This document shows, piece after piece, positions 4,834-63,608 of a stretch of 64,000 nucleotides of DNA; the first letter of the stretch is position 1, and each line of letters starts with the position of its first letter. The stretch lies in the IMG/VR virus record IMGVR_UViG_3300029288_000138, positions 19,618 through 83,617 of that record; one strand, 5' to 3'. A program made the position numbers and the translations under genes. The DNA comes from a virus (Duplodnaviria > Caudoviricetes). A model generated the notes under the pieces. It was given only the letters and a program-made list of their open reading frames with translations, ran no database searches and was not told where the DNA came from.

Positions 4834-5166
4834 ATGTTAGTATGCACAATATACAAGCATGAAGCATCTGAAGTTAAAGAGTGGATCGAAAAAGAATATA
4901 AGTTTGATCGAATTAAAGAGTTATTTATTAAAAAATATAAACGAAATCTACCATTTGAAACTGAGTATGAATTAATAGAAGTGGTAGAAAGGAAATTAAA
5001 AATAAAATTGCAATTACCAGAAGAATCACCAACCCAAAAACAAGATTGGGAATTTCTATGGCATAGATTTGGGTTAAATAAACGATGCATAAAATGTAGT
5101 AAAAAATGTAAGCAACACGCAGGATGCGTTGTAGAATATTGCCCATTATTTGTTAAAAAGATTTAA
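4834..5166 (+). CDS. hypothetical protein with C-terminal Cys motif
   Basis: Intact ORF; C..C...CKQH......YCP. Confidence 0.7.
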   Translation: MLVCTIYKHEASEVKEWIEKEYKFDRIKELFIKKYKRNLPFETEYELIEVVERKLKIKLQLPEESPTQKQDWEFLWHRFGLNKRCIKCSKKCKQHAGCVVEYCPLFVKKI

Positions 5167-6098
5167 TGATAAAAAATCCAGAACGATTAAAAGAAATATT
5201 AATACAAAAACTAGGTCAGTGTAAAACTTTAAATAGCGGTGAAATTGAATTTTTCTGCCCATTTTGCTTTCACAAAAAGAAAAAGTTAAAAGTTAATACT
5301 ATGACTGGTCACTGACATTGTTTTGTTTGTGGAGTTGGGTCTTTAGGAATATTAGATTTATTTAAAAAGACCAAATCTAGTAATAGTATAATCAAAGAAG
5401 TATTTGATTTAATTGATAATAATAAAGTATACATTAAATCAAATATAATAGAAAATAACAATAATAACATAGTATTACCAAATGAATTTATCCCACTGCA
5501 TAAATTACGGCTTAGTATTGAATATAAAAATGCAATTCAATATTTAAATAAAAGGCATATAACCCAGGAAAAAATTAATAGATATAATATAGGATATTGT
5601 GAAACTGGAAAATACGCATATAGAATAATATTGCCCAGTTACAATGCTAATGGAGTATTAAATTATTTTACTGCTAGAGCATATTATGATAATATGTTTG
5701 AAAAATATAAAAATCCAGGATATTCAAAAGATACATTTATATTTGAATTGTATATATCATGATTATTTCCGATTATACTAGTTGAAGGAATGATAGATGC
5801 AATTGTAATTGATAGGAATGCTATTCCTATGTTAGGGAAATCAGTTAATAATACGTTAATGTTATCATTAATAAAACATAATGTAAAAGAAGTATATCTA
5901 GCATTGGATGCCGATGCTACTAAGGATATATATAAGATAGCCAAAAAATTAATATCTAATAGCGTCAATGTTAGAGCGGTTATATTACCAAAAAATCAAG
6001 ACCCAGCAACAATTGGTCAATCTGAATTTTTTAACTGCATGAATAATAGTATTCTTTTAGATAAGTGTAATCTATTAAAGTTTAAAATGAAATCATAG
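5166..6098 (+). CDS. DNA primase (zinc finger plus TOPRIM); TGA read as Trp
   Basis: CPFCFH...TGH*HCFVC (TGA 5313) and FELYIS*LFPIILVEG (TGA 5760) fall at typical Trp positions; TOPRIM ALDADA; same frame as track ORF 5790-6098. Confidence 0.9.
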
Positions 6099-6109
6099 GA
6101 GAATAGGTA

Positions 6110-9100
6110 TTGGGAATTATACGATTGAGTGATACTGCAGTAATTAATAGAATAGTGCATTCTGCAGACATACATATTAGGAATGTAGAGCGACACAATG
6201 AATATAAAAAAATTATAAAAAAATGATTAAAATCTTTATCTATACAAAATGTAGATTTGATATGTATTGTTGGAGATACACTTCATTCTAAAACAGTGCT
6301 TTCTCCAGAATCAATAAACATTGTATATGAGTTATTAACTAAATTATCTAAAATATCCCCAGTTATAATTTCATTAGGCAATCACGATGTAAATTTAACA
6401 AACCCAAATAGAATGGATGCTTTATCCCCGATTATAAAAATGGCAAATATTCAAAATGTGCATTTGCTAAATACTTCAAATATATATCGTTACGGCAATA
6501 TAGATTTTTATAATGTTTCAATTAGAAAAAAAGATTTAAATATTGTTGAAAATGTATATGATAATAATCAAACTAACATTGCATTATATCACGGAGTAAT
6601 AAAAAGTTCTAGAAATGATTTTGGGTATGTTTTTGAAAGTGAAATTTCTAGCGAAATATTTGAAAAATTTGATATCGCAATGTTAGGGGATATCCATCGT
6701 CGGCAGGAAATAAATAGCAAAAAAATACAATATTGCGGTTCATTAATTCAACAAAATTATGGAGAAGATACAGAAAAAGGATATGTTATTTGGGATATAT
6801 CTGATAAAAATGATATAAAAAGCGAATTTGTTAAAATAACCAATGACAATGCCTTTTATACAATAACTACAAACAAAGGCAAATTACCTGATTTAAATAT
6901 TACTGAAAAAAATCCTAGAATCAGACTATTTTTAGATAGAGATGCATTAAATAATGCAAATGAAATTATTCATCAAATAAAACAAACTTTAAACCCGTTA
7001 GAACTTACATCTCATGTTAAAGATGAAACAGAAAAAAGTAATATTACTAGAAAATATGAAGTACAAAGTTTTTATGATACAGGAGTTCAAAATGGATTGA
7101 TAGAAAGATTTTTGAAAGATAAGTATTCAACTATTAGTAATGAAGAATTAAATAATATATTCAATTTAAATTTTGAAATGGAAAATATATTAAGAGATGG
7201 TGGGTACTATGTTATGCCAAATTATGGTAGTAATTGAAGTGTAGAAAAATTAGAATTTGATAATATGCTTATTTATGGTGAAGGAAATAGTGTAAACTTT
7301 AATAATCTACCCGGTATAACTGGAATATTTGGTGCTAATAATACTGGTAAGAGTGCATTTTTTGATATACTGATGTTTGCTTTGTTTGGTCAAACAACTA
7401 AAAATTTAGTGTTAGAAAAAATCGTTAATGACAAAAAGAACAATGCAACTGCAATGACTCTTATATACTTAGATATAATTGGCTGTAAATATGCTATAGA
7501 AAGAATAATAGGTACAAAGTATTTTAAAAAATACGGCAGAAGATCGGTTATAACTAGCACGTTAAATTTTTATGTTGTTGATAATAATGGTGAAAAAATA
7601 TTGCAAAATGATGATGACAAAAATAAAACGGAAAGAAAAATAAGAACAATGATAGGCACCCCAGAAGATTTTATATCAACTACTATGTTAGTGCAAAATG
7701 ATGGAACTCCATTTATTAGTAATAGAGATACAAAAAGAAAATCTTCATTAAGCAGATTATTAGGATTAGAACCACTAGAGCAAAAATATGATAGAGCAAA
7801 TACTATGGCAAGAAAAATTAGTATTATTTTAGAAGATTTGTTATCTAAAGATTATAAATCGGAATTGGCTCAGTTATTGATAAAAATTAATAGTGCTAAT
7901 AATATTAAAGAAAATCTTTCAATTGATTTAAGTAATCTAAATAAAAAACTAGAAGATATTGAAAATGAAATAGAAGAATATAGAAATAGCTTAAATAATA
8001 TAAAATTGTTTGATTTAAATTTAGATAAAATCAATATCGAATTAAATAATCATACTACTTCATTGGGATTGAAAGAAACAGAATTAAAAGAGGCTAATAG
8101 TATATTTACTAGTTTAAAGGAACAATATATAAATTTGGATACTGAATTATCTAAATATGATTATATCGAACTGGAAAAAAATAATACTGAATATGTACAA
8201 TTAAATAAGCAACTAACAGAAATTAAAAACGATATTGAAAAATTAACTATTACAGTTAAACAAAAATTACAGCAATTAAATATACTAAAGAATGAACCAT
8301 GGCATGAATATGAAGAGGTTTGCAGAACTTGCTCATTTTTAAAAGATGCATTCAAAAGTAAAGACGAATTATATATTCACTCTAAAGAATCTGATGAGTT
8401 ACTAGCATCAAGAAATAATATAGAAAATAGTATGGCAAAATTGCTTCCAGAAGTTACTAAATTCAAAACATACAATAACACTTTCACTGATAAAAACAGT
8501 ATTTTTGAGAAAATGAAAATTACCAAATTGAAAATATCTGAGATAAGCAATGAAGCTGAATTGATAAAAACAAGAATAAATATATGTAATAATAATATCA
8601 ATGAATATAACAATAATAAAGAATCTATTGATAAAAATACAGAAATACAAAAAAATATAGAATCTATTAAGAAAATAAAAGAATCATATAAAAGTAATAT
8701 AGCAGAAGTATCAAATAGTTTAATTAATATATTAGGAGATATAAAATTATTGGATAACAGAAAAGAACAGGTTGTATCTGAAATAGAAAAAATACAGGAA
8801 TTAGAAACTAAGCATAATACTTACAGATACTATTTAGAGGCTATTCATAGAGACAATATTCCCTATCAAATTATATCTCAAATGTTGCCGCATATAAATC
8901 ACGAAATAACTCATATACTAGAAACAACTGTAGATTTTAGTATTGATATTAGATCCGGAGAAGATAAAATAGAAATAATTATTGTTAGACCAAATGGAGA
9001 GGAAAGACCCATAGAGGCCGAAGGCGGAATGGTAAATGTTATTTCTGGTATAGCAATTAGAGCAGCATTGAATTTTGTTTCTGTATTACCGAAACCAGAC

Positions 9101-9295
9101 TTCTTTGCTATAGATGAAGGATTTTCGGCCTTTGATGAAAACATATTATCTTCTGTATACAATTTAATAGACTTTTTAAAGAGCAAATTTAAGAATGTAT
9201 TTATGATAACTCATATCAATAGTTTAAAAGATGGGGTTGATAATATTATAGAAATAAAGCCAGAACGAGGTGGCTCTATAGTTAATGTTTGTTAA
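6110..9295 (+). CDS. Fused Mre11/SbcD-Rad50/SbcC recombination nuclease-ATPase (T4 gp47-gp46-like); TGA read as Trp
   Basis: HSADIH, VGD, GNHD, LGDIH phosphoesterase motifs. Reads through TGA 6224 and TGA 7235 (N*SVEKLEFDNMLIYGEG) into Walker A GANNTGKS, coiled coil with CxxC hook, Walker B IDEG. Confidence 0.85.
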
Positions 9296-9387
9296 AAAAT
9301 ATTATTGTTTTATAAAGAATTATCTTGTTTTTCAATCATTTTAATATTAAATTATAGGGTTAATTAAAATAAAGAAGGAAAAAGAAA

Positions 9388-9756
9388 ATGAAAATCCTAA
9401 AAATTAAGAAAACTTTTGAAACAGCAGAAGAAGTTTATGCTAGTTCCGAATTTCATAAGATTTGGGAGGGTTTTAATGAAAACAAACCATTCATTCGATA
9501 TAAAAACGAGTTTACATTTTATAAAGCTTTTGTAACAGCCGGGCAATATGAGGATGATATTTGGATGTGGTATAAGTGCCTAGATGGTATGGTTTTTCTG
9601 CGAAAAATTTCGGTCTGTTCCTGTTTGGATAACGCAGATTTTCGCTTAGTTTTAATCAATGAAGAAAAAAATGAAATCGTATTGACAGATATGTTCTTCA
9701 AAAAATCCGTAAATCTCTCGAAAAACTTGCCAAAACTTAGAACAACTTTTTGCTAA
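9388..9756 (+). CDS. hypothetical protein
   Basis: Early promoter plus AAGGA RBS. Confidence 0.7.
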   Translation: MKILKIKKTFETAEEVYASSEFHKIWEGFNENKPFIRYKNEFTFYKAFVTAGQYEDDIWMWYKCLDGMVFLRKISVCSCLDNADFRLVLINEEKNEIVLTDMFFKKSVNLSKNLPKLRTTFC

Positions 9757-9761
9757 ACCGA

Positions 9762-11114
9762 ATGAACAACAAAGAACAATCAATCAAAATAATCAAAACT
9801 ATACAATCTAAAGGATTCGAAGCAGTTTGGGCCGGCGGGTGTGTACGAGATACTATTCTAAATCTCGAACCAAATGATTATGATATTGCTACAAATGCTA
9901 CTCCTAATGATATTGAAAGAATTTTTGATAATTCAAAATTCGACTACAAATTCATTATCAATAAACACTGTAATGGAAATAGATTTGGAGTATCATTAAT
10001 TAAAGGCATAGAAGTAGCAACATTCAGAACAGACGGGAAGTATGAGGACGGCCGCAGACCAGAAGGAGTAGAGTTTTGCGATATGGAACATGATGCAGCC
10101 AGGCGGGATTTTACATGCAATGCGTTATACATGGATCCAGTAGAAAATACCATTTATGATTTTGTCAATGGCATCAATGATATCAATAACAAAAAATTAA
10201 AATTCGTTGGTAAAGCAATTGATAGAATCAATGAAGATTATTTAAGGATGCTAAGATTTGTTAGATTCTTAGCAAAATTTGATTTTGATTATGACTACGA
10301 TGATATTGATACCATACAAAACAATGCTGAAAATATTAAAAAATTATCTGGTGAAGTAATATTAATGGAATTGGTCAAAATGGCCGTTTTATTTCCTGAT
10401 AAATTTGCTAAATGCATTGTGTTAATGAAGATGACAAATTTGTTACAATATATTTTTCCTAGTGTTGATAGGCTTGATACTATTGAACAAGATCCAATCA
10501 ATCATCCAGAGGGAGTGGTTTGGGAGCATACTATTCTAACAGTTTCTAAACTACAAAAAGATATTAAATTAGAAACTAAATTTGCTGCTTTATTTCATGA
10601 TACTGGAAAATATCAAACCAAAGGGTTCAATAAAGAAAAGAACAAAATTACATTTTATGGCCACGAAGATTTTAGTGTAGAAAATACCAAAGAAGAATTA
10701 CTGAATTTAAAAGCATCGAATGATTTTATTGACTCGATTGTATCATTAATATCAAATCATATGAGATTTAGATTGGTCAAAGAAATGAAAAAATCTAAAT
10801 TGATTAAATTTTTTGCATTAGATAATTTCAATGAACTAATGAAATTACATAAAGCAGATTGTTTAGGTAGTGATAATGATTTAGAATACTATAATTTCTG
10901 TACAGAAAAAATCAATGAATTAAAAGATGAAAATTCTAATAGTGTTACTTTACCCAAAAGATTAATTAATGGGGATGATTTAATTTCAATTGGTTATATC
11001 CCCGGAAAAATATTCAAAGATATTCTGGATACTGTATTTGATTTGCAATTGGAAGGCAGTATTAATACAAAAGAAGATGCAATACAATTCATACTTGATA
11101 AATATCATCTATAA
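9762..11114 (+). CDS. cca: CCA-adding tRNA nucleotidyltransferase with HD domain
   Basis: GGCVRD....DYDIAT, EVATFR, DAARRDFTCNA, EDYLRMLR; HD region H.EG.VWEHT...FHDTGK. Confidence 0.92.
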   Translation: MNNKEQSIKIIKTIQSKGFEAVWAGGCVRDTILNLEPNDYDIATNATPNDIERIFDNSKFDYKFIINKHCNGNRFGVSLIKGIEVATFRTDGKYEDGRRPEGVEFCDMEHDAARRDFTCNALYMDPVENTIYDFVNGINDINNKKLKFVGKAIDRINEDYLRMLRFVRFLAKFDFDYDYDDIDTIQNNAENIKKLSGEVILMELVKMAVLFPDKFAKCIVLMKMTNLLQYIFPSVDRLDTIEQDPINHPEGVVWEHTILTVSKLQKDIKLETKFAALFHDTGKYQTKGFNKEKNKITFYGHEDFSVENTKEELLNLKASNDFIDSIVSLISNHMRFRLVKEMKKSKLIKFFALDNFNELMKLHKADCLGSDNDLEYYNFCTEKINELKDENSNSVTLPKRLINGDDLISIGYIPGKIFKDILDTVFDLQLEGSINTKEDAIQFILDKYHL

Positions 11115-11138
11115 GAATAGTAATTCTAGATTGAATTA

Positions 11139-11146
11139 TATTTATA
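11139..11146 (+). promoter_or_regulatory. Late-type promoter motif TATTTATA; representative copy
   Basis: TATTTATA or TATTTATT shortly upstream of gene/RNA starts at 11139, 13558, 15713, 22225, 26808, 31006, 34472, 35982, 42802, 50610, 51954, 58705, 61629. These precede structural, lysis and TGA-containing genes. Late timing is an inference by analogy to T4 TATAAATA. Confidence 0.7.
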
Positions 11147-11152
11147 ATTGAG

Positions 11153-11701
11153 ATGATAAAACTATCTAAAATACTAAAAGAATTTAACAATGTATCTGGT
11201 ACACCAGTATTTGAGTTTAATACCCAAATCTACATTCCATTACAAGTAACAAAGATTCCAAGTGTAATTAATAAACCAAATGTAGTCAAAACAGTATTCA
11301 TCGAATTGAATTATTCGTACATATATAACTATGTAAGAAAAGTATTGACAAATATAATCCAAAAGAATTTAAAATCTAGTAATATAAAATTTAATCCATC
11401 TAAAAATATTAGTCCGTGATTATTTCCTTATGCTATAATTAAAAGTGGCGATTGACGGAGTTCTCAATATTTTAATACTGAAGATGTCGAATTACTTAAA
11501 ATGATATTCCCAGATAAGTTTCAATGTATATTATCTGGAAAGGTGTATAAGTATGAAAATGGATATAAAATAGTATATAATTGAAATGATAAATCTAAAT
11601 TTGAACAAAGTCTAAACCAGTTTATAAAGAATAAGTCAGATAGTAAAGTAACAGTCTGAGGTACTTGGAAGGTGAATTTTCCGGAATATTTTACAATTTA
11701 A
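11153..11701 (+). CDS. hypothetical protein, MIKLSKILKE leader; 4 TGA read as Trp
   Basis: Frame stays open past TGA 11417 to TAA 11699-11701. Confidence 0.75.
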
Positions 11702-11763
11702 TTCTTGTTTTCTATTCATTTTTATATTAAATTATAGAGTTATTAAAAATTAAAGGGGGTTAT

Positions 11764-12258
11764 ATGGAAAAGGTTTTTTCAATCTATGGCGTAAAACTTA
11801 ATAACCAAGATCTGCAGAAATCTGCTGATGCGATCAATGCTATAGAATCACAAAAGAAATTGTATGAAGACGATGCTTATTTCTATTTAATCCAAATGGT
11901 TTATGATTTAAGACATAATCAAAAAACATTGTTTCATCCAGTATATCACAATAGAAATTTATCAACAGATATTGAAATTTACCAAGAGGACGACGATTTA
12001 TATATTGGAGTAGATTTTTCAAAAGTAAAATCTAGAAGTAATATTTATTCTAAAAAATATATTAATCAATATCTGGAAATAATAAAAGGTACATTAACTA
12101 TAATTTTAAATAATTTGTGTTTATTATCAAAATTAAATTGTGATTTTTATACGGGATTATATACGGATAACACAGAAGATTTAATTGAATGTTTAAAGGA
12201 GAATAAAGGAAATGATAACAGTTGGTGGAAAGTATACGAACGCCAAGATAATGATTGA
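11764..12258 (+). CDS. hypothetical protein (ends TGA TGA)
   Basis: Early promoter plus GGGG RBS; 3' end overlaps the rtcB start. Confidence 0.65.
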   Translation: MEKVFSIYGVKLNNQDLQKSADAINAIESQKKLYEDDAYFYLIQMVYDLRHNQKTLFHPVYHNRNLSTDIEIYQEDDDLYIGVDFSKVKSRSNIYSKKYINQYLEIIKGTLTIILNNLCLLSKLNCDFYTGLYTDNTEDLIECLKENKGNDNSWWKVYERQDND

Positions 12259-13531
12259 TGATATAGAACCTCAATGTTATTCTCAAATATTATCATTTGT
12301 TAATCACCCGGCATTTACAAATAATATTGCAATAATGCCAGACACTCATGCTGGCAAAGGCAGTGTAATAGGATTTACTATGCCATTAAATCCATATAGA
12401 ATTATACCTAATGTCGTAGGTGTAGATATTTCATGCGGAATTGTAGGCATGTGCTTCGGATTTGATGCCAATTTTAATCTAGATGACTCTGGTAAATATG
12501 CATTTGACACTAAGATTAGAGAATTAATTCCATTTGGCCAGACTGTTCATACTAAATCAGTTATTCATTTTAAAAATGATTTCCCTTGGAAAGAACTAAA
12601 TCAAAATGCTATTGAATTTATCAAGAACTTTTATAATAAATTTAAAATTAGAATAGAACCGCCAAATTATGATTATGACTGGTTTGAAAACAAATGTAAA
12701 CAAATCGGAGTAAAAGTAAAATATGCTATCGATAGCATAGGAACATTAGGCGGCGGGAATCATTTTATTGAAATTGGTAAATCTGAAAAGACTGGTTACT
12801 GGATAACTATTCATAGTGGTTCTAGAAATTTTGGTGCTAGAATATGTCAATATTGGCAAGGAATTGCTGAGAAGAAAATTAAAAATATAAAAATAAATGA
12901 ATTACAAAAAGAAATACTCGATATAAAAAGTAAGTATTCTGGTATAGATATTAATATAGAAATAAACAAAGCCAAAGAAAGGCTTGGATTAAATGATAAA
13001 GTATCTGGTGATCTATTATTTCTAGAAAACGAAGATGCTATCAGTTATTTAGTTGATATGTTATTTACTCAAATGTATGCGGAAGTAAATAGAAATTATA
13101 TGTCATATATACTTTGCAATATCATAAATTCTAGACCAGTAAAAACAATAAAAACTAATCATAATTTTATAGACTTTGAAGACTTTATTATCAGAAAAGG
13201 TGCTATAAAATCATATATTAATGAGGAAATGATAATTCCATTTAATATGGAAGATGGCATATTAATATGCACTGGTAAATCTAACCCAGAATGGAATTAT
13301 TCTGCTCCTCATGGTGCTGGTAGACTATTTTCTAGAAGTGAAGCAAAAAAGAAATTATCATTAGAAGACGCTAAAACTTCAATGGAGAATAGTGGTATTT
13401 TTACTACTGGTATTCCATTAGATGAAGTCAAAGGTGCTTATAAAGATTCAGATGTTATCAAACAAGCAATTGAACCAACTGCTGTTATAATCGACAAAAT
13501 CAACCCAATTCATAATCTAAAGGCTCTATAA
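12212..13531 (+). CDS. rtcB: RtcB RNA 3'-phosphate ligase
   Basis: MPDTHAGKG..IG, VGVDISCG, GTLGGGNHFIE, IHSGSRNFG, HNF, RKGA, SAPHGAGR, AYKD. Confidence 0.95.
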   Translation: MITVGGKYTNAKIMIDDIEPQCYSQILSFVNHPAFTNNIAIMPDTHAGKGSVIGFTMPLNPYRIIPNVVGVDISCGIVGMCFGFDANFNLDDSGKYAFDTKIRELIPFGQTVHTKSVIHFKNDFPWKELNQNAIEFIKNFYNKFKIRIEPPNYDYDWFENKCKQIGVKVKYAIDSIGTLGGGNHFIEIGKSEKTGYWITIHSGSRNFGARICQYWQGIAEKKIKNIKINELQKEILDIKSKYSGIDINIEINKAKERLGLNDKVSGDLLFLENEDAISYLVDMLFTQMYAEVNRNYMSYILCNIINSRPVKTIKTNHNFIDFEDFIIRKGAIKSYINEEMIIPFNMEDGILICTGKSNPEWNYSAPHGAGRLFSRSEAKKKLSLEDAKTSMENSGIFTTGIPLDEVKGAYKDSDVIKQAIEPTAVIIDKINPIHNLKAL

Positions 13532-14840: not shown

Positions 14841-14899
14841 CTCCGGCTGAAACGCCCGGTGCCAATTTTTCAGCCGCTCCATCTGAGGGCACAGGTTCT

Positions 14900-53732: not shown

Positions 53733-53733
53733 A

Positions 53734-54402: not shown

Positions 54403-54406
54403 TACT

Positions 54407-54787: not shown

Positions 54788-54797
54788 GGAAGAAAAA

Positions 54798-55094
54798 ATG
54801 AAAAAATCACAATTAAGGCAAATAATTAGAGAAGAAATCATACGAGAAGTAAAACTCGAATTTAATAAATATCCACTAAAAATGGATGATGAAGAATATC
54901 TAGCAATGATAAAAGAATTAGAAGAATATTGAAAAAAATCTGGAAATAATAAACTTAAATTTAGAAATATAGTTATGAATGCATATAAAAATGGTGAGAT
55001 TAGTTATACAGAAGAAATAAAAAAAGTAATTGATCATTTTCTAAGCCCATCTGGCATAGCCTCAAGAATATTAAAAAAGAGAATACAGTACTAA
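54798..55094 (+). CDS. MKKSQLRQIIREE-leader protein; 1 TGA read as Trp
   Basis: Frame open to TAA 55092. Confidence 0.75.
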
Positions 55095-55135
55095 AAAATT
55101 GAAATTAAAAGATATAACATCGGAGAAAAATAAAT

Positions 55136-55747: not shown

Positions 55748-55766
55748 AAAATAAAGGATAATAACT

Positions 55767-56171
55767 ATGAAACAATTTAAAAAACTATATGAAGAAATAA
55801 TTCATCAAGAACCAATCAATGAAGAAGAATTGATTAATAACATAAGTGGGTTCAATACTTTGGGCGAATGCCTGTATAAGGAAGATAACGAATTTTCTTC
55901 TTCAGTTAAAAAAATATCTGAATTGGCTAAAAAGGCTTCTAGACATATTATTGAATCTGAGCAAGATTGGTTTAGCCGCGTGCAACTTAAAAAGGATGCT
56001 AAAGTATTAGAAAATGTTGCAAGAGAATTAGATGAAGTTTCTACTCAAATGAATGAATTAAAACAAAGATCTACTGCATTATTTGAAGATTGTGGGCATA
56101 TGTTAAATAGATATTATGATATTAAAGAATGCAATAAGAATAAACCAGAATTAAGCAAAAGACAATACTAA
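55767..56171 (+). CDS. conserved head-region protein
   Basis: DWFSRV..K.D; LFEDCGHMLNRYYDI. Confidence 0.75.
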   Translation: MKQFKKLYEEIIHQEPINEEELINNISGFNTLGECLYKEDNEFSSSVKKISELAKKASRHIIESEQDWFSRVQLKKDAKVLENVARELDEVSTQMNELKQRSTALFEDCGHMLNRYYDIKECNKNKPELSKRQY

Positions 56172-56172
56172 T

Positions 56173-56694
56173 ATGCCAATACGTACAATAGTTAGTTTAG
56201 TACAAATGCTAAACGAAATACAATCAGAAGAAGAACTAGAAAAAGAGATTTCTAGTTGAAAGACTTTGCAAGAAATGATTAATACAAAGCAATCTGAAAT
56301 TCAATCTGTACTAGATGAATTGAAAAAAATGAATGATGAAAATAGCAGTAGATTCAAAGAAGTAGAGAAATTTATGATTAGATTTAATATCAAGTCTAAG
56401 AAAGTTAACAATTGAATTGCTGAGATAAAAACTGAACTAAAATATAAAGTAGTCAGGCCAGATTATAAAGAATTATGAGAATCTGCAATGACTAAAGTTA
56501 ATGAAGCAACAAAGAGTGTATTACAGAATTTATTGAACATTCAAAAGGATATAAAAAGTAAAGAAGTGAAGAATCAATTAACTATCGAAGGACTTGGTAG
56601 TATAGTTAAAAATTTGTTCAATAATATAAAAAATTGAATACTTAGTATAAATAAATTTGATAAAGTAACAGATAATTTACCGAAAGTGAGATAA
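56173..56694 (+). CDS. coiled-coil protein; 4 TGA read as Trp
   Basis: Frame open to TAA 56692; absent from the track. Confidence 0.7.
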
Positions 56695-56696
56695 AA

Positions 56697-56921
56697 ATGA
56701 AAGACGAAGAACAGTCTATAGGTAGATGCATTGGATTAGCAATTGATAAAAATATGGATATAGAAAAAGCCATAATGAAATTCAAGAAAAAAGTTAAAGA
56801 TTCTAAATTGATGTTAGTATTAAAAGAAAATTCATATTATCAAAAGCCTTCTGAAAAGAAACGGAAAAAACAGAATAGGTGAAAATTAGATATAAATAAA
56901 ATAAATAGAGATGGAGTATAA
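56697..56921 (+). CDS. rpsU: Ribosomal protein bS21 homolog; TGA 56880 read as Trp
   Basis: DIEKAIMKFKKKVKDSKLMLVLKENSYYQKPSEKKRKK. Confidence 0.85.
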
Positions 56922-56923
56922 TG

Positions 56924-57154
56924 ATGAAAAAGAGTGTATTAAGGCAAATAATTGGTGAAGAAATTAGTCTTTTAAAAGAAAATGAGTATGAGAAGAAAAA
57001 ATTGGTGGACTGTTTATCCAAAAAAGGATTTAATCCAAAGGATGCAAAAAATATGGTTGAAAAGCATTATGATTATGTTATGAGAGTTTATAAAAATCAA
57101 GGATTAACAATAGCAAAAATAGCAAATATAATATCATCTTTATGAGCGAAATAA
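56924..57154 (+). CDS. MKKSVLRQIIGEE-leader protein; 1 TGA read as Trp
   Basis: Ends SSL*AK-TAA. Confidence 0.75.
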
Positions 57155-57173
57155 ATAAAAAGGAAATACAATA

Positions 57174-57479
57174 ATGAAAAAAAGTATATTAAGACAGATT
57201 ATAAAAGAAGAGATATTGAAAGAATTTTCAACTACAAAAGAATATGTTGTTATTGGTAATGCGGGGCGCGGCCGGCAAAATTTATGACCAAACAGTACTA
57301 ACCCAAAATTATATACAAAAATCGAAGCTGAAAGTATAGTAAAAAAACAAAATGATACAAATAAATTGTATTCATCTTCAATATATTTTCATATACAAAA
57401 TCTGAGGGATGCAGAAAAATATATTTCACCCGGGCAACCGGCTTGAACTGGAATACAAAAATTATTATCAAACAATTAA
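57174..57479 (+). CDS. MKKSILRQIIKEE-leader protein; 2 TGA read as Trp
   Basis: Frame open to TAA 57477. Confidence 0.75.
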
Positions 57480-57515
57480 AAGCAGTATATAGTAAACAAT
57501 GAGGAGAATAATAAA

Positions 57516-57800
57516 ATGAAAAAGAGTGTATTAAGACAGATTATTAAAGAAGAAATAACAAAAATATTGCTTTTCGAAGTTACTAGTGGGGATAGAGTAA
57601 AAATTGTGTATAAACGTGATTGAGATAGAACACACGGATTGGGGCAATATTTTCATAATAAAACAGGTACTATAATTTCTATAGAAAAAGACGGAAGAAC
57701 AAATATGTTTAGAGTAAGACTTGATAGTCCTGTAATGTTGCCAGTAGTTGGTAAAGTTACTGATGATTTATGAGCAGCAGAGTATCTTAGAAAAATATAA
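57516..57800 (+). CDS. MKKSVLRQIIKEE-leader protein (KOW/SH3-like); 2 TGA read as Trp
   Basis: GAGGAG RBS; GDRVKI...KTGTII.....FRVRLD. Confidence 0.75.
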
Positions 57801-57825
57801 TTTCCACAAGTATAAAGGAGATCTA

Positions 57826-58053
57826 ATGAAAAAATCACAACTAAAAGAAATAATTAAAGAAGAGTACAACAAAATCATTAATGAAATGGGTGATCTTACT
57901 ACATACGAGTTGGAGTTGGGAAATAATACTAAATTTTCATTCAATAAAAATACAGATAAAATATTTTTAGAACAGCACAGAAATAGTATTATGATGCATA
58001 GAAATGAATTTAAAAGAATGGTATATTTTGCCGAAAAAAATGGGTTGATATAA
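57826..58053 (+). CDS. MKKSQLKEIIKEE-leader protein
   Basis: AGGAG RBS before ATG 57826. Confidence 0.75.
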   Translation: MKKSQLKEIIKEEYNKIINEMGDLTTYELELGNNTKFSFNKNTDKIFLEQHRNSIMMHRNEFKRMVYFAEKNGLI

Positions 58054-58054
58054 A

Positions 58055-58345
58055 ATGAAAAAAAGTGAATTAAGACAGATAATTAAAGAAGAAATTCAAG
58101 TTATATTAAACGAAGATATAGTATCAATAACAGATATAAACAAATTATCACATGGCAAAATAAAAAACATAAGAAAATTTATTGATAATGTTTTTTCCGG
58201 TGAATATCGTCAGAAATATGGCCTAGAAACAGATTCAAATTCTAGATACTTTGAGTTAGTACACAGGCATAGATATTCTGATTTACAAGCTCAAGCGGAT
58301 ATATTTGCTGATAAAATTGGAACAAATAAAATAAAGGAATTATAG
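58055..58345 (+). CDS. MKKSELRQIIKEE-leader protein
   Basis: Track ORF. Confidence 0.75.
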   Translation: MKKSELRQIIKEEIQVILNEDIVSITDINKLSHGKIKNIRKFIDNVFSGEYRQKYGLETDSNSRYFELVHRHRYSDLQAQADIFADKIGTNKIKEL

Positions 58346-58350
58346 TAACA

Positions 58351-58653
58351 ATGAAAAAATCAGTACTTAGACAGATAATAAAAGAAGAAATAAAAATATT
58401 GAAAGAAACTGATTGAGAAATGGGGTATAGAAATTTTCAAGGCAGTAATCAATATCATCCAAGAGAAAATCATATAGCATCTTTAGAACAATTAAAACAT
58501 TTGTTATCTAAAGGGCGAGACATATTTTATACGGGAAAAAGAATTGGTAATGTTTTCTATAATACGTATAAGTCCAATGGTAATATTACCGTTAGATTAG
58601 AACATACAACCAAAGATTTAGTTATAAATATCAAAGATATAAGCTTTAGATAA
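58351..58653 (+). CDS. MKKSVLRQIIKEE-leader protein; TGA 58414 read as Trp
   Basis: In frame with track ORF 58420. Confidence 0.75.
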
Positions 58654-58829
58654 AAAATTATATAAAAAATATTGCTAAAACCAATGTTTTTTAAGAATTG
58701 TATATATTTATTTTTATATAAAAAATCGAACAATACTACTTTACATATACATTTAAGTAGTTATCCAAATAAATAAGTTTATTAAATCGACTAATCGATT
58801 TAGATGTAAGTCTAAAATGGAGAATCATA

Positions 58830-59888
58830 ATGACGAAAAAAACAAAAAATAGCAATATGCTACAAGAAGCTATTGTTGATGCGAACACATTAAAGGAAAT
58901 GGCTATAGAGAATGCTAAAGAATATTTAGCAGAAACATTTAGCCCTCGCATCCAAAACATTCTAAGAACCAAATTACAGAATGAAGAAGATAAACCTGAT
59001 GATGATGAAACGCTGTTAGATCCAAATGTCCCGGCAAATGATAACGCTGCAGATGTTGCTAATGCTCAACCAGAGGCAGTACCTACAGAATTACCTGATG
59101 AAATAGAGGACGAAAAAGAAAAAGAAGGCGCTATAGCATCCGAAGAAGTTAATCCTGAAGATGATGTTGACGGAGTTCAAACCAATTTGAATAATGATGA
59201 AGATGAAGATGACAAGGAAATTGACATTGAATCAGTCTTAAGAGAATTGGAAGACGATGAACCAGAAGAAGAAGTACCCGTTGAACCAGAACAAGGTCCA
59301 GAAGGTGCACCTGAAACTGCTCCTGCAATGGATAGTGTTCCGGCAGAGGATGATGACGAGGATTTAGATATAGAACTAGAAGACGATGAAAAGGATCTAG
59401 AACCTAAAAATCCAGACGAAGTTGCTCCGGAAGAACTTCCAGTTGCTCCAGACGAAACTCCAGTACTAGTGCCAGACGAAGAAGATGAAAAACTAAAAGA
59501 AGAAAACGTTAGACTGACTACAGAATTAAATGAATATAAAAAAGCATTTATTACTTTGAGAAATAATATGAACGAAGTGAATTTGTTAAATGCTAAATTA
59601 TTATATTCCCAAAAAATCACTAAGTCACCTACTGTTACTGAATCTCAAAAGAACATTGTAATCAATGCAATGGATAGAGCAAATAGTATAAGGGAAGTAA
59701 AATTGACCTTTGCAAATTTAGTTGAATCATTTGGTTTAAATAAAGCAAAAACCCGTAAGAAAAGTATTAATGAAGGCGCAAGTGGTGCACAGAGAGGACT
59801 ATCTAAATCAATATTAAATGAAGCAGTTAGTTCAATCGAAAGAATACAAAAACTTAGTGGAATTCGCGTAAAAGCAAAAACAAAATAA
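58830..59888 (+). CDS. Prohead scaffolding/core protein
   Basis: LLQEAI.DA..LKE.AIENAK..L.E.F.P; acidic middle; LNEVNLLNAKLLY...F.RA.SIREVKL; directly upstream of MCP. Confidence 0.88.
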   Translation: MTKKTKNSNMLQEAIVDANTLKEMAIENAKEYLAETFSPRIQNILRTKLQNEEDKPDDDETLLDPNVPANDNAADVANAQPEAVPTELPDEIEDEKEKEGAIASEEVNPEDDVDGVQTNLNNDEDEDDKEIDIESVLRELEDDEPEEEVPVEPEQGPEGAPETAPAMDSVPAEDDDEDLDIELEDDEKDLEPKNPDEVAPEELPVAPDETPVLVPDEEDEKLKEENVRLTTELNEYKKAFITLRNNMNEVNLLNAKLLYSQKITKSPTVTESQKNIVINAMDRANSIREVKLTFANLVESFGLNKAKTRKKSINEGASGAQRGLSKSILNEAVSSIERIQKLSGIRVKAKTK

Positions 59889-59929: not shown

Positions 59930-61519
59930 GTGTTAGTAAATGTAGAAAAATTGATGACTCAATATCGTCAATTAAATAGATATGAAGAAGGCAAGAAATT
60001 GGTTTCAAAATGGGAACCGACTGGCCTTCTAGAAGGAATTGATGATGAATTTAAGAAACATGGTATGGCTTTATTGCTTGAAAACCAAGCAAAAAGGTTA
60101 ATTGATGAATCTTCTAAAACATCAACTGCCTCAAGTACAGAAGGTTGGTCAGATGTTGCCCTACCTCTAGTACGTAGAACTTTTGCAAAGATTGTTGCAC
60201 AAGACTTAATGTCAGTACAACCGATGAGTATGCCATCGGGCCTAGTGTTCTGGCTATATTTTGATTATGGTACCAGCAAACCAACCAATTTAGGTATATT
60301 CACTTCTGGTACAAGTGTTTATGGTAATGTATCTTCAAGTGCAGTAACTGGCGAAGACATGGGCCCATTATATGCTTGGGATTATACTTTCACAAAGAAT
60401 TATATTTCAGCATCTACTGTTGTTCCTACCACGTTAACCAGTGCATCTTGGGCGGATTTTAACTATAATGATACTATTTCAGCATCATTATCAGCATATC
60501 CAAAAGAATACAAAAAATTCAAAATTGCGTGGTCTGGCTTAAGTGGTGCAGATAAAGAAGCTGCAAAAGCAATTACTTTAATATCTGGTTCAGTATATAA
60601 TACAATATACAGAAAATATACCACAGCAGACGATACGTATGTATATGTAATTGTGTCTAGTTCAGACGCACACTCTGAAACTATTCCGACCGTTGAATAT
60701 CTGAAACAAACCACTCAGGACAATAGAGGTGATTTTGAATCAGGTCAAACAGGAGTTGGAGCAATTCCTGAAATCAATATTAGAATGGAATCAGAAGCTA
60801 TTACGGCAACAACCAGAAAGTTAAAAGCAATTTGGACACCTGAAATAGCTCAGGACTTGAATGCATATCATAGTGTCGATGCTGAAGCAGAATTAACCAA
60901 TGTATTATCAGAATACATAGCAATGGAAATTGATATGGAATTAATCGATATGCTTTGGCAAGATGCTTTAGTCAAAGACTTCTGGTCTACTAAAGTTGGC
61001 AATTTCTTAGATTCATCAACAGGTGCACCAATCTCAGGAGCCCCAGTATTTTATGGTACTGAAATGGAATGGTATCAAACTTTAATAAAGAAAATTACTA
61101 AAGTGTCGAACGAAATCCATAAAAGAACCTTAAGAGGCGGAGCTAATTGGATAGTTGTTGGAACAACTGTTGCAACCATCCTAGAATCAATGAAACCTGG
61201 CTTTGTTGATGACTCTGCAGATATCGAATCAACCGAATATGCAATGGGTCTACAAAGAATTGGTACGTTGAATAATAGATGGAAAGTCTATAAGAATCCA
61301 TATTTTAGAGACGATGCAATCTTGTTAGGATTTAGAGGAAATAGTTTCTTGGAAACTGGCGCAGTATACGCCCCATATATTCCATTAATTCAAACACCTC
61401 TAGTATATGATCCAGATGACTTTACCCCGCGTAAAGGCATAATGACACGATATAGTAAGAAAATGTTACGTCCTGAATTTTATGGTAAAATTATAGTAAG
61501 AGACTTAAACTTAGTGTAA
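59930..61519 (+). CDS. Major capsid protein (T4 gp23-like)
   Basis: KWEPTGLLEG; LLENQAK; LVSVQPMSMPSGLVF; TRKLKAIWTPEIAQDLNAYH.VDAEAELT; YAPYIPL; PRKGIMTRY; 12 Trp, all TGG. Confidence 0.95.
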   Translation: MLVNVEKLMTQYRQLNRYEEGKKLVSKWEPTGLLEGIDDEFKKHGMALLLENQAKRLIDESSKTSTASSTEGWSDVALPLVRRTFAKIVAQDLMSVQPMSMPSGLVFWLYFDYGTSKPTNLGIFTSGTSVYGNVSSSAVTGEDMGPLYAWDYTFTKNYISASTVVPTTLTSASWADFNYNDTISASLSAYPKEYKKFKIAWSGLSGADKEAAKAITLISGSVYNTIYRKYTTADDTYVYVIVSSSDAHSETIPTVEYLKQTTQDNRGDFESGQTGVGAIPEINIRMESEAITATTRKLKAIWTPEIAQDLNAYHSVDAEAELTNVLSEYIAMEIDMELIDMLWQDALVKDFWSTKVGNFLDSSTGAPISGAPVFYGTEMEWYQTLIKKITKVSNEIHKRTLRGGANWIVVGTTVATILESMKPGFVDDSADIESTEYAMGLQRIGTLNNRWKVYKNPYFRDDAILLGFRGNSFLETGAVYAPYIPLIQTPLVYDPDDFTPRKGIMTRYSKKMLRPEFYGKIIVRDLNLV

Positions 61520-61556: not shown

Positions 61557-61587
61557 AGCCCTTTAGAAATAAAGGGCTTTTTTTTTT
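61557..61587 (+). terminator. Intrinsic terminator after MCP
   Basis: AGCCCTTTA-GAAA-TAAAGGGCT followed by T run. Confidence 0.88.
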
Positions 61588-61658
61588 AGTTTTTATAAAT
61601 TTTTTCTATTTTTTATAAATTTGAAATATATTTATAATAAATAGCACAGGAGTCTAAA

Positions 61659-63608
61659 ATGGACAAAAAAAGAACTTGTTTAGAATGTAATATGGAATTA
61701 ACGAGTACTAGTAAATATTTTATCAAACACATTAAAATAGAACATAACTTATCATATGAAGATTATATTTTAAAACATTATTATAATAACGTCGTTCCAA
61801 CTTGTAACTGCGGGTGCGGCACCAAACTACAATTTTGCAAAATATGCGACGGGCCTTGATACCCAGAATACACTACAAATCATAGAAAAAGAGGTAAAAA
61901 ATTATCTAACTCTGCCAAACAAAATATAAAAAACGGAACAATTGCTGCCACAATTAAAAAATATGGAGTAACATCTTACTTTAAAACTGAAGAATTTAAA
62001 ATCAAAAATAAACAAACTAGATTACTAAAATATGAAAATGAAAATTATAATAACATAGAAAAAAATAAACAAACTAAACTAGAGAAATATGGGAACAAAA
62101 ATTATCACAATTGAAATAAAGCAAAGCAAACAAACCTTGCAAGATATGGTGTAGAATATCCAATGCAGTGCAAAGAAATTCTTTTAACTAGAGACTTAAA
62201 TAACATAAAAAAATATGGATTCAAAAATCATATGCAAAATACTGAATTCAAAACAAAATATTTAGAGAGTAGAAGAATAAAAACGGGGTATATTTCCAAT
62301 CTACTAGATCCGGAATTTAGAAAAAAATATAATAATAATACATCTAAAATAGAAAAGATAGTTTCTGATAAAATAGGAGGTAAAAATAAATTTATACTTG
62401 ATAATCATGAATTTGATATATTAGTTGATAACGATATAATAGAAATTGACGGCAACTTTTATCACCCAAATAAATTAGAAAATTTATCATTCACTCAGAT
62501 TAACAATCTAATTAATGATTATACTAAAGAGCAAATAATAAAAAAACACCCAGAATATAATTTTTATAGAATATATACCTCTATACTGCATAATAATATA
62601 GAAAATATAACAAAAGAATTTATAATTAACAATTCCAATCATAGCAAGAATTATGATATTGCATACAATCAAGTAATAATTGAAAAAGAATATTTTCAGA
62701 AATACAAGGAATTAAAAAGCAAAGATAAACTAGAATCTTACATTCCTCTACTAATCAAATTTATCAGAACGTTTCAACCTAATTTTCCATATCCTGAGTC
62801 AAAAGAATCTATTGAATATGTAATAAAATACATTTCAACAATACCCATTAATTCTGATAAATACTGAAAAAATAATCATTATTCTTCAATAGGCAATGAT
62901 TATCTAAAATCTAAATTTAAATCATACTGGCAATCATCTTTTAAAAATAATTTGAGTCCATATGATGCATTCTATGATAATGAAATTTTGTATAGATTAC
63001 TAAAATACAGAATAGGTATCAATGATAGTAATGAAGTATTTGATTTCTCATTGAAACAAATTCTCAAAGGATTATCTGCTCTAAGATATACTATATCTTT
63101 TTTTAAGCCTACTATTGCAGCATCAATCTATAAAACTTTTTTGAATACTGATACTCCAACTGTATTAGATCCATGTGCTGGTTTTGGTGGCCGATTATTG
63201 GGATTTAAATCTATGTTTCCGAATGGAACATATATTGGCATTGAACCGAGAAAAGAAACATATTCAGAACTATTAGAATTATCAAAAAACTTTAGCAACG
63301 TTGAAATAATCAATAGTAAAATTGAAGATTATAATGATAAATATAACTTTGATATGGTATTTACATCAATCCCATTTTATAATATAGAAAAATATACAGA
63401 AGATAACTTATATCAGTCATGAACAGACTGGGTTGCCCATTTTATAACAAGCATTAAAAAATATAATAACTTGTTTTTAATTATACCAGACATAGATCAA
63501 TATATAAATTTATTTAAAACATACAAAAACAAATATATAATTGAATACAATACATCACATTTCAATAAAAATAATCAAATTAAAAAAGAATTAATTTTAA
63601 ATATATAA
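61659..63608 (+). CDS. Multidomain protein: Zn finger, KYG repeats, Vsr/DUF559-like endonuclease and C-terminal DNA methyltransferase; 4 TGA read as Trp
   Basis: Three track ORFs in one frame; CxCGCG; SKIEK...FDILV...IEIDGNFYH; VLDPCAGFGGRLLG; DMVFTSIPFY. Confidence 0.8.

Follow-up and report, generated by a model that had tools for sequence, protein, structure and literature searches.

The 64,000-nucleotide stretch analysed here (the window) belongs to a contig that makes up an about 42% complete part of a T4-like phage with a GC content of 29%. T4-like markers on the contig are the gp23 capsid, the gp20 portal and the gp17 terminase. The lineage is environmental, its relatives coming from a landfill scaffold and from aquatic metagenomes. 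Two motifs recur along the window, an early promoter (TCTTGTTT-N16-TTAAATTATAG), which resembles a host sigma-70 site, and a short, AT-rich "late" motif (ATATTTATA). The main genes and blocks are given below with counts of TGA and TGG codons in the reading frames; w in a peptide motif stands for TGA.

126-5166, + strand: early block 1, with early promoters at 126, 1618 and 3770; 10 genes and a tRNA-Cys, the genes including a Metallophos phosphoesterase, an Rnl2-like RNA ligase and NUDIX; 0 TGA, 31 TGG
5166-6098, + strand: DnaG-type primase; 2 TGA (GHwHC in the zinc finger, ISwLF), 0 TGG
6110-9295, + strand: fused SbcD-SbcC (Mre11/Rad50-like), 1061 aa; 2 TGA, 2 TGG
9324-11114, + strand: early block 2, with an early promoter, a 122-aa gene and a CCA-adding enzyme; 0 TGA, 5 TGG
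11138-11701, + strand: ATATTTATA motif, then a 182-aa gene; 4 TGA, 1 TGG
11704-13531, + strand: early block 3, with an early promoter, a 164-aa gene and RtcB (0 TGA, 5 TGG)
13596-22174, + strand: three tail-fibre-like genes, as in the next three lines
13596-14840, + strand: tail-fibre-like gene; 2 TGA, 4 TGG
14900-15652, + strand: PKD-domain gene, late or structural; 0 TGA, 5 TGG
15734-22174, + strand: giant tail gene, 2146 aa; 23 TGA, 10 TGG
23093-30513, + strand: early block 4, with promoters at 23093 and 27685, 18 tRNA genes, a SpoU methylase and small genes; no internal TGA
26710-26782, + strand: tRNA-Trp(CCA) in the early tRNA array, with a C27/A43 mismatch, a 4-bp anticodon stem and a U11-A24 pair
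30711-31004, + strand: hydrophobic 97-aa gene, directly upstream of tRNA(UCA); 2 TGA, 2 TGG
31018-31320, + strand: split tRNA(UCA) gene, with a ATATTTATA motif just before it (31005-31013)
31756-34432, + strand: early block 5, with a promoter variant; RlaP-type nucleotidyltransferase, cytidylyltransferase-like and other genes; 0 TGA, 10 TGG
34471-35365, + strand: ATATTTATA motif, then a 254-aa gene; 2 TGA, one of them in a C-terminal zinc ribbon (GwKYC)
37331-41491, + strand: early block 6, with promoters at 37331 and 39248 and five genes; 0 TGA, 7 TGG
41742-42219, + strand: early promoter, then a 107-aa gene (from 41893) that ends at a tandem TGATGA
42801-58653, + strand: main recoded block, preceded by a terminator (42649-42676) and a ATATTTATA motif; M78-like peptidase, PG-binding endolysin-like gene, terminase, portal with intein, TnpB-like gene, prohead protease, bS21 and small genes
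45462-47057, + strand: large terminase subunit; 15 TGA, 0 TGG
58830-59888, + strand: 352-aa gene adjoining the capsid gene; no Trp codon of either kind
59930-61519, + strand: major capsid protein (Gp23 family); 0 TGA, 12 TGG
61659-63608, + strand: DUF7487 gene behind a ATATTTATA motif; 4 TGA, 2 TGG
63620-63651, + strand: early promoter copy after the DUF7487 gene

In this phage TGA is a sense codon meaning tryptophan. The preliminary description had counted 15 TGA codons in the terminase by hand, and 15 were found; eight of them fall on columns nearly invariant for W (117 or more of 120 homologues), and at 11 of them the five closest homologues mostly have W. TGA codons of the portal, protease and bS21 genes also align with W in relatives, and every motif that had been pointed out is present: GHwHC and ISwLF in the primase, FPwVR and RIwKQ in the portal, MwWDG in the protease and GwKYC in the zinc ribbon. 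The giant tail gene does alternate the two codons within its IGG-W-x-I repeat, with TGA at residues 427, 684, 749 and 1522 and TGG at 483 and 1141. Against a strain of ~98% identity, three TGA/TGG swaps occurred among 35 Trp codons. The SbcD-SbcC fusion is one TGA-free open reading frame in the relative L082, and the TGA at 7235 is therefore read through.

Coding density, calculated with one ORF-picking rule for code 11 and for TGA read-through, rose from 70.9% to 89.7% overall when TGA was read through. The increase was confined to recoded blocks, among them the packaging and head block at 42817-58653 (58.7% to 97.7%) and the tail block at 13596-22174 (60.4% to 98.4%), and the early blocks at 126-5166 and 31978-34432 were unchanged. 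A TAG read-through control added no coding density, and TAG recoding was rejected.

Other meanings of the codon were also considered. The terminase columns at TGA hold mostly W; two of them are Gly in most distant homologues, and in the five closest homologues one of these two is W and the other varies (D, P or G). Code 25, in which TGA means Gly and which is used by Absconditabacteria/Gracilibacteria phages, was rejected, since no more than these 2 of the 15 terminase columns are Gly in distant homologues. Selenocysteine was rejected as well: the 137 TGA codons occupy Trp or aromatic positions, not rare Cys/Sec sites. The tRNA(UCA) is not a tRNA-Sec either: with 7 bp in its acceptor stem and 4 bp in its D stem it departs from the 8/5 acceptor/T-arm form, and the match to the Rfam tRNA-Sec model scores 22.5 bits, the cut-off being 47.

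The census of Trp codons covered 102 genes with 137 TGA and 171 TGG, leaving out spurious ORFs that overlap tRNAs or a promoter (23654-23923, 25479-25700, 28835-29035, 31095-31331 and 31757-31957). TGA was used by 43 of the 83 Trp-containing genes and was missing from the other 40, a heterogeneity beyond that of 5000 binomial simulations (G = 251 versus a simulated maximum of 159), and a runs test along the genes gave p = 6e-5. Genes behind the early promoter hold 13 TGA and 108 TGG and the other genes 124 TGA and 63 TGG (Fisher p = 2e-23), so that the bias of early genes towards TGG is significant. Five of these 13 TGA codons stand at gene ends and are apparent stops (in two TGATGA and one TGA-GAA-TAG); without these five, p falls to 7e-27. 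Genes with and without TGA have the same GC content and the same density of out-of-frame TGA, and the avoidance of TGA is thus specific to the reading frame. The 41 early-promoter genes tested have about 100 TGG together and no internal TGA. The earlier statement that TGA never lies inside early genes stands for internal codons and has to be modified for three early genes with TGA at the extreme 3' end, and the figure of over 30 TGG in early genes was too low, the TGA-free early genes of the window having about 80.

The early promoter motif has 16 matches, all on the + strand, where 1.03 are expected, a number reached in none of 100 shuffles. At least eight alternations of TGA-free and TGA-using blocks on this one contig coincide with it. 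A generic sigma-70 scan gave no signal (134 matches versus 133 expected), and the late motif is not significant by count alone (15 matches versus 10.8 expected). The primase, SbcCD and the genes at 13596 and 30711 use TGA with no exact late-motif match in front of them. The start of the primase overlaps the stop of the last gene of early block 1, and no promoter motif precedes it; primase and SbcCD carry TGA and yet appear to be part of an early transcription unit.

The three early genes with in-frame TGA have it confined to their last 2-15 codons, for which the chance is about 1e-4. The 164-aa gene of early block 3 ends at a tandem TGATGA (12256-12261), as does the 107-aa gene at 41893 (42214-42219), and the gene at 26040 in early block 4 ends with TGA-GAA-TAG (26457-26465). 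Beyond the TGATGA at 12256 the sequence differs from L207 by three substitutions; each leaves the protein unchanged in the RtcB frame and alters it in the frame of the extension. The terminal TGA codons of these three genes are probably true stops. If TGA does serve as a stop in early genes, twice in tandem, one genome gives the codon both meanings.

TGA had been assigned to structural genes in general. This is correct for the giant tail, portal and protease genes and too broad as a rule, because the capsid gene uses none among its 12 Trp codons (p = 4e-7); the PKD-domain gene has 0 TGA and 5 TGG. Pooled capsid genes of recoded relatives contain 3 TGA and 31 TGG, versus 150 TGA and 61 TGG in their late neighbours. 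The capsid avoidance of TGA recurs in the relative L086, and the capsid gene of one relative has 3 TGA. That the virion's most abundant protein is encoded without TGA suggests incomplete suppression.

The partition recurs in the relatives L082 and L207. In L082, which comes from a different sample and metagenome and shares 45% identity in the terminase, 11 genes with 0 TGA and 29 TGG are followed by a terminator and TATATTTATATAA, and then by genes with 59 TGA and 8 TGG. In L207, one contig carries recoded baseplate genes and, after them, a copy of this early promoter and an RtcB gene free of TGA; the L207 blocks are ordered differently from those of the present phage. L207, from landfill, was deposited by a landfill study, the only paper found to mention any of the sample accessions. 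A chimeric assembly was rejected on finding the same junctions in the independent assemblies L089, L207 and L082. Sister phages of similar GC content keep the standard code with TGG only, and in one of them TGA serves as a stop.

The phage carries its own tRNA whose anticodon would be UCA after removal of a group I intron. The intron elements are located as follows.

31052-31262, + strand: group I intron, 211 nt, between anticodon-loop positions 34 and 35
31064-31085, + strand: P2, with a GAAA loop
31091-31096 with 31170-31175, + strand: P3
31101-31106 with 31125-31130, + strand: P4
31131-31155, + strand: P6
31159-31164 with 31212-31216, + strand: P7, with a bulged A
about 31176-31204, + strand: P8
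31262, + strand: terminal G

The gene was missed by default ARAGORN and by Rfam because the 211-nt intron splits its anticodon loop, and intron-aware ARAGORN reported a tRNA with a 211-nt intron at 31018-31321. The splice junction was placed by the U/G and terminal-G rule and by requiring an anticodon loop of 7 nt; the junction that ARAGORN itself chose is shifted by one base and would give the anticodon GCA. The predicted spliced product is a 93-nt Trp-like tRNA with anticodon UCA, a long variable arm and an intact cloverleaf, and it scores as tRNA(tca). It carries A1-U72, G2-C71, G3-C70 and G73, the identity set shared with E. coli tRNA-Trp, and charging with Trp is presumed. The insert is homologous to inserts of roughly 190 nt that interrupt capsid genes in Pelagibacter phage HTVC120P and in phage KM23C739. 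The canonical group I order P3-P4-P6-P7-P3'-P8-P7' was located in the three homologous sequences, across which P3 covaries fully and P7 shows two compensatory changes. CCAGACTAC (31215-31223) was rejected as P7/R, since homology with the pelagiphage inserts puts it in P9, the true P7 being GAGAGC/GCTCC. The Rfam Intron_gpI model gave no match within 31035-31275, either at the gathering threshold or at E-values up to 10, and a pattern scan of IMG/VR for further intron-split tRNAs sharing this anticodon stem gave chance matches only. From the early promoter at 27685 to tRNA(UCA) no terminator was found on the + strand, and the tRNA may therefore also be made early.

We consider it likely that this is a T4-like phage of a wall-bearing, standard-code host, with early genes kept free of TGA and an intron-split tRNA(UCA) that turns TGA to Trp for the remaining genes. 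Early-promoter genes would be written for unmodified host translation, with no internal TGA and perhaps even with TGA as a stop; they encode enzymes of RNA repair and tRNA maturation together with a large array of tRNAs. The Trp-like tRNA would gain its UCA anticodon only once the 211-nt intron self-splices, and the mature, Trp-charged tRNA would have TGA read as Trp. Genes with TGA could then be completed, namely those for primase, SbcCD, resolvase, baseplate, tail fibres, lysis, terminase, portal and protease, and the code would thus change in time during infection. Suppression would compete with host RF2, and such competition would explain both the avoidance of TGA in the capsid gene, whose product should be needed in the largest amount, and the double TGA ending two early genes. 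We suggest, tentatively, that RNA self-splicing could gate the change of code: the one cognate reader of UGA would be made as an inactive precursor whose anticodon forms on intron excision; splicing and the early tRNA-maturation and repair enzymes of the phage might then set the timing and extent of the switch.

A host using code 11 is probable on the grounds of the peptidoglycan-targeting lysis genes, the standard-code sister phages, the apparent early TGA stops, the capsid avoidance and the presence of a phage suppressor. The contig has a PG_binding_1 endolysin-like gene, and Amidase_2 is present in relatives, which implies a host with a cell wall; the known code-4 bacteria are wall-less or tiny endosymbionts. 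Genome scans with bS21 and Hsp20 for hints of the host found nothing. It is unlikely that the host itself reads TGA as Trp, with the phage sharing its code 4 and the TGA-free early genes reflecting something other than translatability. A GC content of 29% favours TGG-to-TGA drift, TGA occurs in 43 of 83 Trp-containing genes, replication genes included, and RF-1, PCRF and TrpRS/class-Ib synthetase domains are absent from all six frames of the 42%-complete contig; most cultured code-4 phages, moreover, infect Mycoplasma or Spiroplasma (PMC11210395). Such a host would, however, leave unexplained that no internal TGA occurs among about 100 Trp codons of early-promoter genes, and likewise in L082, that three early genes appear to end at TGA, that capsid genes avoid it, that the phage has its own tRNA(UCA) and that sister phages of similar GC keep the standard code, and the lysis genes that target peptidoglycan clash with wall-less Mollicutes. 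A native code-4 Mollicutes phage was rejected on the 40 Trp-containing genes without TGA, the PG-binding endolysin-like gene and the Amidase_2 of relatives.

If the host does use code 11, the main reader of TGA could still be the tRNA-Trp(CCA) at 26710, by near-cognate pairing, or a suppressor encoded in the 58% of the genome that the contig lacks; both are quite unlikely. A shortened anticodon stem, as in Blastocrithidia tRNA-Trp, and the Hirsh G24A change each raise UGA reading, and the CCA tRNA, which sits within the early array, has the C27/A43 mismatch and U11-A24; the contig, too, is incomplete. On the other hand, U11-A24 is common among tRNAs generally, a UGA reader made early would remove the reason for TGA-free early genes, and a cognate UCA tRNA with an intact cloverleaf is present. 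Phage genomes are mosaics, the block order differs from that of L207, and the capsid gene, having no TGA, may have been imported recently, which would fit a partition that is purely historical, its TGA-free modules recently acquired from standard-code phages with no regulatory meaning. This is very unlikely, given that at least eight alternations on one contig coincide with one promoter motif, that GC content and out-of-frame TGA density are identical in both classes, that the same split is found in a relative at 45% terminase identity and that the capsid avoidance recurs in L086.

The preliminary description had remarked that recoded phages with a late-gene bias are known, and block-wise stop-codon recoding has indeed been published (Yutin 2021; Borges 2021; Mgcod), to which the present phage adds an unusual suppressor. 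Like known code-4 recoded phages, it reads TGA as Trp, concentrates recoding in structural and lysis genes, has close standard-code relatives and has a suppressor tRNA as the proposed switch; in known code-4 phage genomes suppressors are detectable in only 35%. Unlike those phages, it is T4-like with environmental relatives, its primase, SbcCD and resolvase are also recoded, its suppressor is split by a group I intron, and no RF1 or TrpRS is seen on the 42%-complete contig. A term search of the paper on known code-4 phages found neither capsid avoidance of TGA nor tandem TGA stops.

The crAss-like phages show block-wise dual coding (Yutin et al. 2021, PMC7886860; Mgcod, bioRxiv 10.1101/2022.06.29.495998), with standard-code blocks beside TGA- or TAG-reassigned blocks and recoding mostly of late genes, as here; introns and inteins are frequent in their core genes, and they pose the same "missing" suppressor tRNA puzzle. 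Differences are another phage order and a Shine-Dalgarno-using host, and that the present intron lies within the suppressor tRNA itself and not in protein genes. Group I introns in the anticodon loop are known from cyanobacterial tRNA-Leu(UAA) and Azoarcus tRNA-Ile, and the present intron resembles them in its insertion after U34, a CUU/GAG P1 helix with a U/G pair, a length of about 200-250 nt, the lack of an ORF, a GNRA-capped P2, a bulged A in P7 and the terminal G. It is unlike them in that its host tRNA is a phage opal suppressor, that the Rfam group I model misses it and that its nearest sequence relatives are inserts in podophage capsid genes. Theta (HDV-like) ribozymes are reported to adjoin tRNAs in recoded gut phages (bioRxiv 10.1101/2023.06.13.544163); these, too, are self-processing RNAs with a link to how the tRNAs of alternative-code phages, including suppressors, mature, the difference being that they lie beside tRNAs and the present element is a splicing intron inside the anticodon loop.

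New here are the intron-split tRNA(UCA), a late capsid gene with TGG only, and TGA in primase and SbcCD without a recognisable late motif. Block-wise TGA recoding is extended from gut phages to a T4-like environmental lineage. Code-11 gene callers fragment about a third of the genome, and phages of this clade are therefore mis-annotated in public collections. The intron-hidden suppressor is a candidate answer to the "missing suppressor" problem (Yutin 2021; Borges 2021; Cook 2024); if this is true, suppressors hidden by introns would explain the apparent lack of an opal suppressor tRNA in most code-4 phage genomes.

Reading TGA through as a sense codon raised the coding density of the whole window from 70.9% under code 11 to 89.7%, one simple ORF-picking rule being used for all codes. 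The increase was confined to certain blocks. Density rose from 58.7% to 97.7% at 42817-58653 and from 60.4% to 98.4% at 13596-22174, and was unchanged at 126-5166 and 31978-34432; reading through TAG instead gave no gain. All credible genes of the window lie on the + strand. Those with T4-type head and packaging functions, as assigned by Pfam and PHROGs, are listed below together with bS21:

45462-47057, + strand, Terminase_6N (T4-type packaging)
47073-50555, + strand, Portal_T4 with an intein (T4-type head/packaging)
55136-55747, + strand, prohead protease S77 (T4-type head)
56697-56921, + strand, bS21, with one TGA, at a conserved W
59930-61519, + strand, Gp23 capsid (T4-type head)

The terminase gene contains 15 in-frame TGA and no TGG codons. 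Eight of the 15 TGA columns hold W in at least 117 of 120 aligned homologues; at most of the others the distant homologues have Y or F and the five closest have W, and Gly dominates at two columns in the distant set only. TGA codons of the portal, protease and bS21 genes also align with W in relatives, and TGA and TGG both occur in the IGG-W-x-I repeat of a 2146-aa tail protein. In L090, a near-identical copy of the phage from another sample (97-99% identity), three TGA/TGG exchanges occur among 35 Trp codons, in both directions. Judged from these alignments, the repeat and the strain exchanges, TGA encodes Trp, as the preliminary description had proposed from motifs that are all present; the same evidence rules out Gly or Sec.

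The record (83,617 bp, linear, 29% GC), of which the window covers bases 19618-83617, has no terminal repeat, and CheckV estimated its completeness at 42%. Pfam and PHROGs further identified a DnaG primase, a fused SbcD-SbcC and an endolysin-like protein with a PG-binding domain, as well as, in the part of the record that precedes the window, a baseplate wedge and a RuvC-like resolvase. The bS21 gene is also found in recoded and standard-code relatives (L086, L089, L090 and the sister phage L209). The portal intein (Intein_splicing, residues about 448-839) carries a NUMOD3 endonuclease motif and holds three of the seven TGA codons of its gene. Between the portal and head genes, gene 50622-51920 (432 aa; one TGA, three TGG) was called TnpB-like in the preliminary description and has a precomputed Pfam entry, SSO2105_N; our Pfam and PHROGs scans gave no match. 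Two otherwise identical copies of the phage, from other samples, differ by insertions: L089 has 277 bp with an 87-aa ORF (window 58664-58666 versus L089:8458-8733), and L090 has an extra NUMOD3 endonuclease gene and a 594-aa ROS_MUCR-domain gene (L090:2835-3632 and 8792-10576). The phage is also rich in genes for RNA repair and tRNA maturation: an Rnl2-like ligase, Metallophos, NUDIX, a CCA-adding enzyme, RtcB, RlaP, SpoU, an HD protein and two cytidylyltransferase-like genes. They are located as follows, in TGA-free early units except for the last group, which lies behind a late-type motif:

839-2936, 4425-4823, 9750-13531, 27812-28282, 31978-34130 and 35991-37328, + strand, RNA-repair/tRNA-maturation genes

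The use of TGA is strongly partitioned. With five ORFs excluded for overlap with tRNAs or a promoter, 102 genes contain 137 TGA and 171 TGG codons. Heterogeneity between genes far exceeds the binomial expectation (G = 251; simulations averaged 107 and never exceeded 159), and genes with and without TGA form clusters (runs test p = 6e-5). The two classes do not differ in GC content, Trp frequency or density of out-of-frame TGA, and the difference in TGA use is therefore specific to the reading frame. A 32-nt early motif, CTTGTTT-N16-TTAAATTAT, occurs in 16 copies at up to 2 mismatches, all on the + strand (1.03 expected; 16 reached in none of 100 shuffles). Its -35 carries TTG and its -10 is AT-rich and extended; it may represent a promoter of the kind recognised by host sigma-70. 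One copy, at 35372, precedes about 520 nt without an ORF (35373-35964). When genes were classed by the nearest upstream motif, early or ATATTTATA-type, the 46 early genes had 13 TGA and 108 TGG, and the remaining 56 had 124 TGA and 63 TGG (Fisher p = 2e-23). Five of the 13 early-class TGA are terminal, and eight are internal, in the primase, in SbcCD and in the genes at 13596 and 30711. These four are the promoter-distal genes of early units, and none is preceded by an exact match to the late motif. The proposal that TGA is never found inside early genes thus holds for genes adjoining the early promoter, and a visible promoter does not account for every code boundary.

Within early genes TGA appears to keep its role as a stop, so that one genome would give it both meanings. 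The genes at 11764 and 41893 end in TGATGA and that at 26040 in TGA-GAA-TAG; in all three, TGA occurs only in the last 2-15 codons, with a chance of about 1e-4 if these were ordinary Trp codons. A homologue of the 11764 gene on a landfill viral scaffold (L207; 84% identity) keeps TGATGA. Downstream of it, all three substitutions are silent in the RtcB frame, which overlaps here, and would change the amino acid in the putative extension frame, a small but consistent sample that argues against a coding extension.

Default ARAGORN and the Rfam tRNA model found 22 tRNAs, including Trp(CCA), and none with a UCA anticodon; a further tRNA-like element at 23823-23925 scored 35.7 bits with the Rfam model and was not called by ARAGORN. 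The tRNA-Trp(CCA) at 26710-26782 has a C27/A43 mismatch that shortens its anticodon stem to 4 bp, and it also has a U11-A24 pair; each of these has been tied elsewhere to UGA reading by CCA tRNAs. Intron-aware ARAGORN detected a tRNA at 31018-31320 with a 211-nt insert in its anticodon loop. Using blastn, the insert was found to be related to unannotated gaps of about 190 nt in the capsid genes of two phages, each annotated as two CDS:

L205:655-851 (MH598807.1, about 19613-19809), Pelagibacter phage HTVC120P, capsid-gene gap with group I intron fold
L206:666-851 (KT997847.1), uncultured phage KM23C739, capsid-gene gap with group I intron fold

Removal of either gap rejoins the capsid fragments in frame (for HTVC120P, by hand from CDS coordinates and aligned sequence), and both look like unannotated introns. 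All three inserts have a canonical group I layout: a GNRA-capped P2, P3, P4, P6, P7 with a bulged A, P3', P8, P7', P9 and a terminal G. P3 differs in each with pairing kept (GAGAAT/ATTCTC, CACTTC/GGAGTG, GATGTC/GGCATC), and P7 shows two compensatory changes; the Rfam group I model did not match the 211-nt insert. Group I rules (a cut after a U paired with G, an end on G) give a 7-nt loop, CUUCAAA, and a predicted spliced product that ARAGORN calls tRNA(tca), of 93 nt with a 7-bp acceptor stem and a long variable arm. The spliced anticodon is likely UCA. ARAGORN's own junction, one base off, would yield GCA; it breaks the terminal-G rule, and a Cys tRNA is already present at 4170. In A1-U72, G2-C71, G3-C70, G73, the D loop and the anticodon stem, the product resembles E. 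coli tRNA-Trp. The main identity element for TrpRS is the CCA anticodon. The variable arm (31263-31320; a 5-bp stem with loop CUCCAAA) resembles a Trp CCA anticodon arm and, we speculate, might serve as a handle for TrpRS.

Immediately before this tRNA and many recoded genes there is a ATATTTATA-type motif that resembles the T4 late consensus TATAAATA; at 42649-42809 it follows a terminator. In L082, a relative from another sample with 45% terminase identity, TGG-only genes give way to TGA genes exactly at a terminator plus TATATTTATATAA. The motif count is not significant (15 versus 10.8 expected), only strand bias (13 + versus 2 -) and position standing out, and no + strand terminator was found between the early promoter at 27685 and tRNA(UCA). 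A code switch during infection is therefore something we reasonably infer and not a result, as is the host code. What the preliminary description observed, the TGA code and its partition, is thus confirmed, and its interpretation is supported in part. In several recoded genes (42801-42819, 50609-50624, 11138-11155) only 4-7 nt, with no Shine-Dalgarno site, separate the end of the motif from the start codon; if it is a promoter, their mRNAs would be leaderless or nearly so.

Some late or structural genes lack TGA. The capsid gene has no TGA and 12 TGG (p = 4e-7, given the late-class TGA fraction) and a PKD-domain protein gene none and five; a 352-aa gene next to the capsid gene lacks any Trp codon. 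In the recoded relative L086 the capsid gene has no TGA and 10 TGG (head-module neighbours, 18 and 8), and in L208, another, three and nine (adjacent gene, seven and none). When pooled, the capsid genes have 3 TGA and 31 TGG, and their late neighbours 150 and 61 (p = 3e-12). Most simply, decoding of TGA would be costly or incomplete, and the gene expected to need most product would avoid it for that reason; this would fit a cell still containing RF2.

Known code-4 bacteria are either Mollicutes, which have no cell wall, or tiny endosymbionts. Indirect evidence favours a walled host that uses the standard code: the PG-binding endolysin-like gene here and Amidase_2 in relatives, the exclusive use of TGG in more distant relatives of similar GC, the TGA that ends bS21 in L209, the apparent early TGA stops, the capsid avoidance and the suppressor tRNA carried by the phage. 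One close relative was recovered from a landfill metagenome (PMC12607003), and other homologues are from aquatic data sets.

Block-wise dual coding is known from crAss-like phages (Yutin et al., 2021, PMC7886860). TGA-recoded phages of standard-code hosts, with recoded structural and lysis genes, were described by Borges et al. (bioRxiv 10.1101/2021.08.26.457843), who detected a suppressor in only 35% of the code-4 genomes; Sup-TCA tRNAs occur in 15% of table-4 phages (Cook et al., 2024), and Mgcod was purpose-built for such block-wise dual coding. In contrast to these phages, the present lineage is T4-like and environmental. Some of its replication genes are recoded (DnaB and SbcCD are TGA-free in L082), an intron interrupts its suppressor, TGA is avoided in capsid genes, and a tandem TGA closes two early genes. 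In a full-text literature search, no description of a group I intron within a phage suppressor tRNA came up, the nearest precedent being theta ribozymes beside phage tRNAs. The phage thus adds one case to a known phenomenon, block-wise TGA recoding, and it is likely, taken as a whole, that it reads TGA as Trp in a partitioned manner, by means of a self-spliced suppressor, in a standard-code host.
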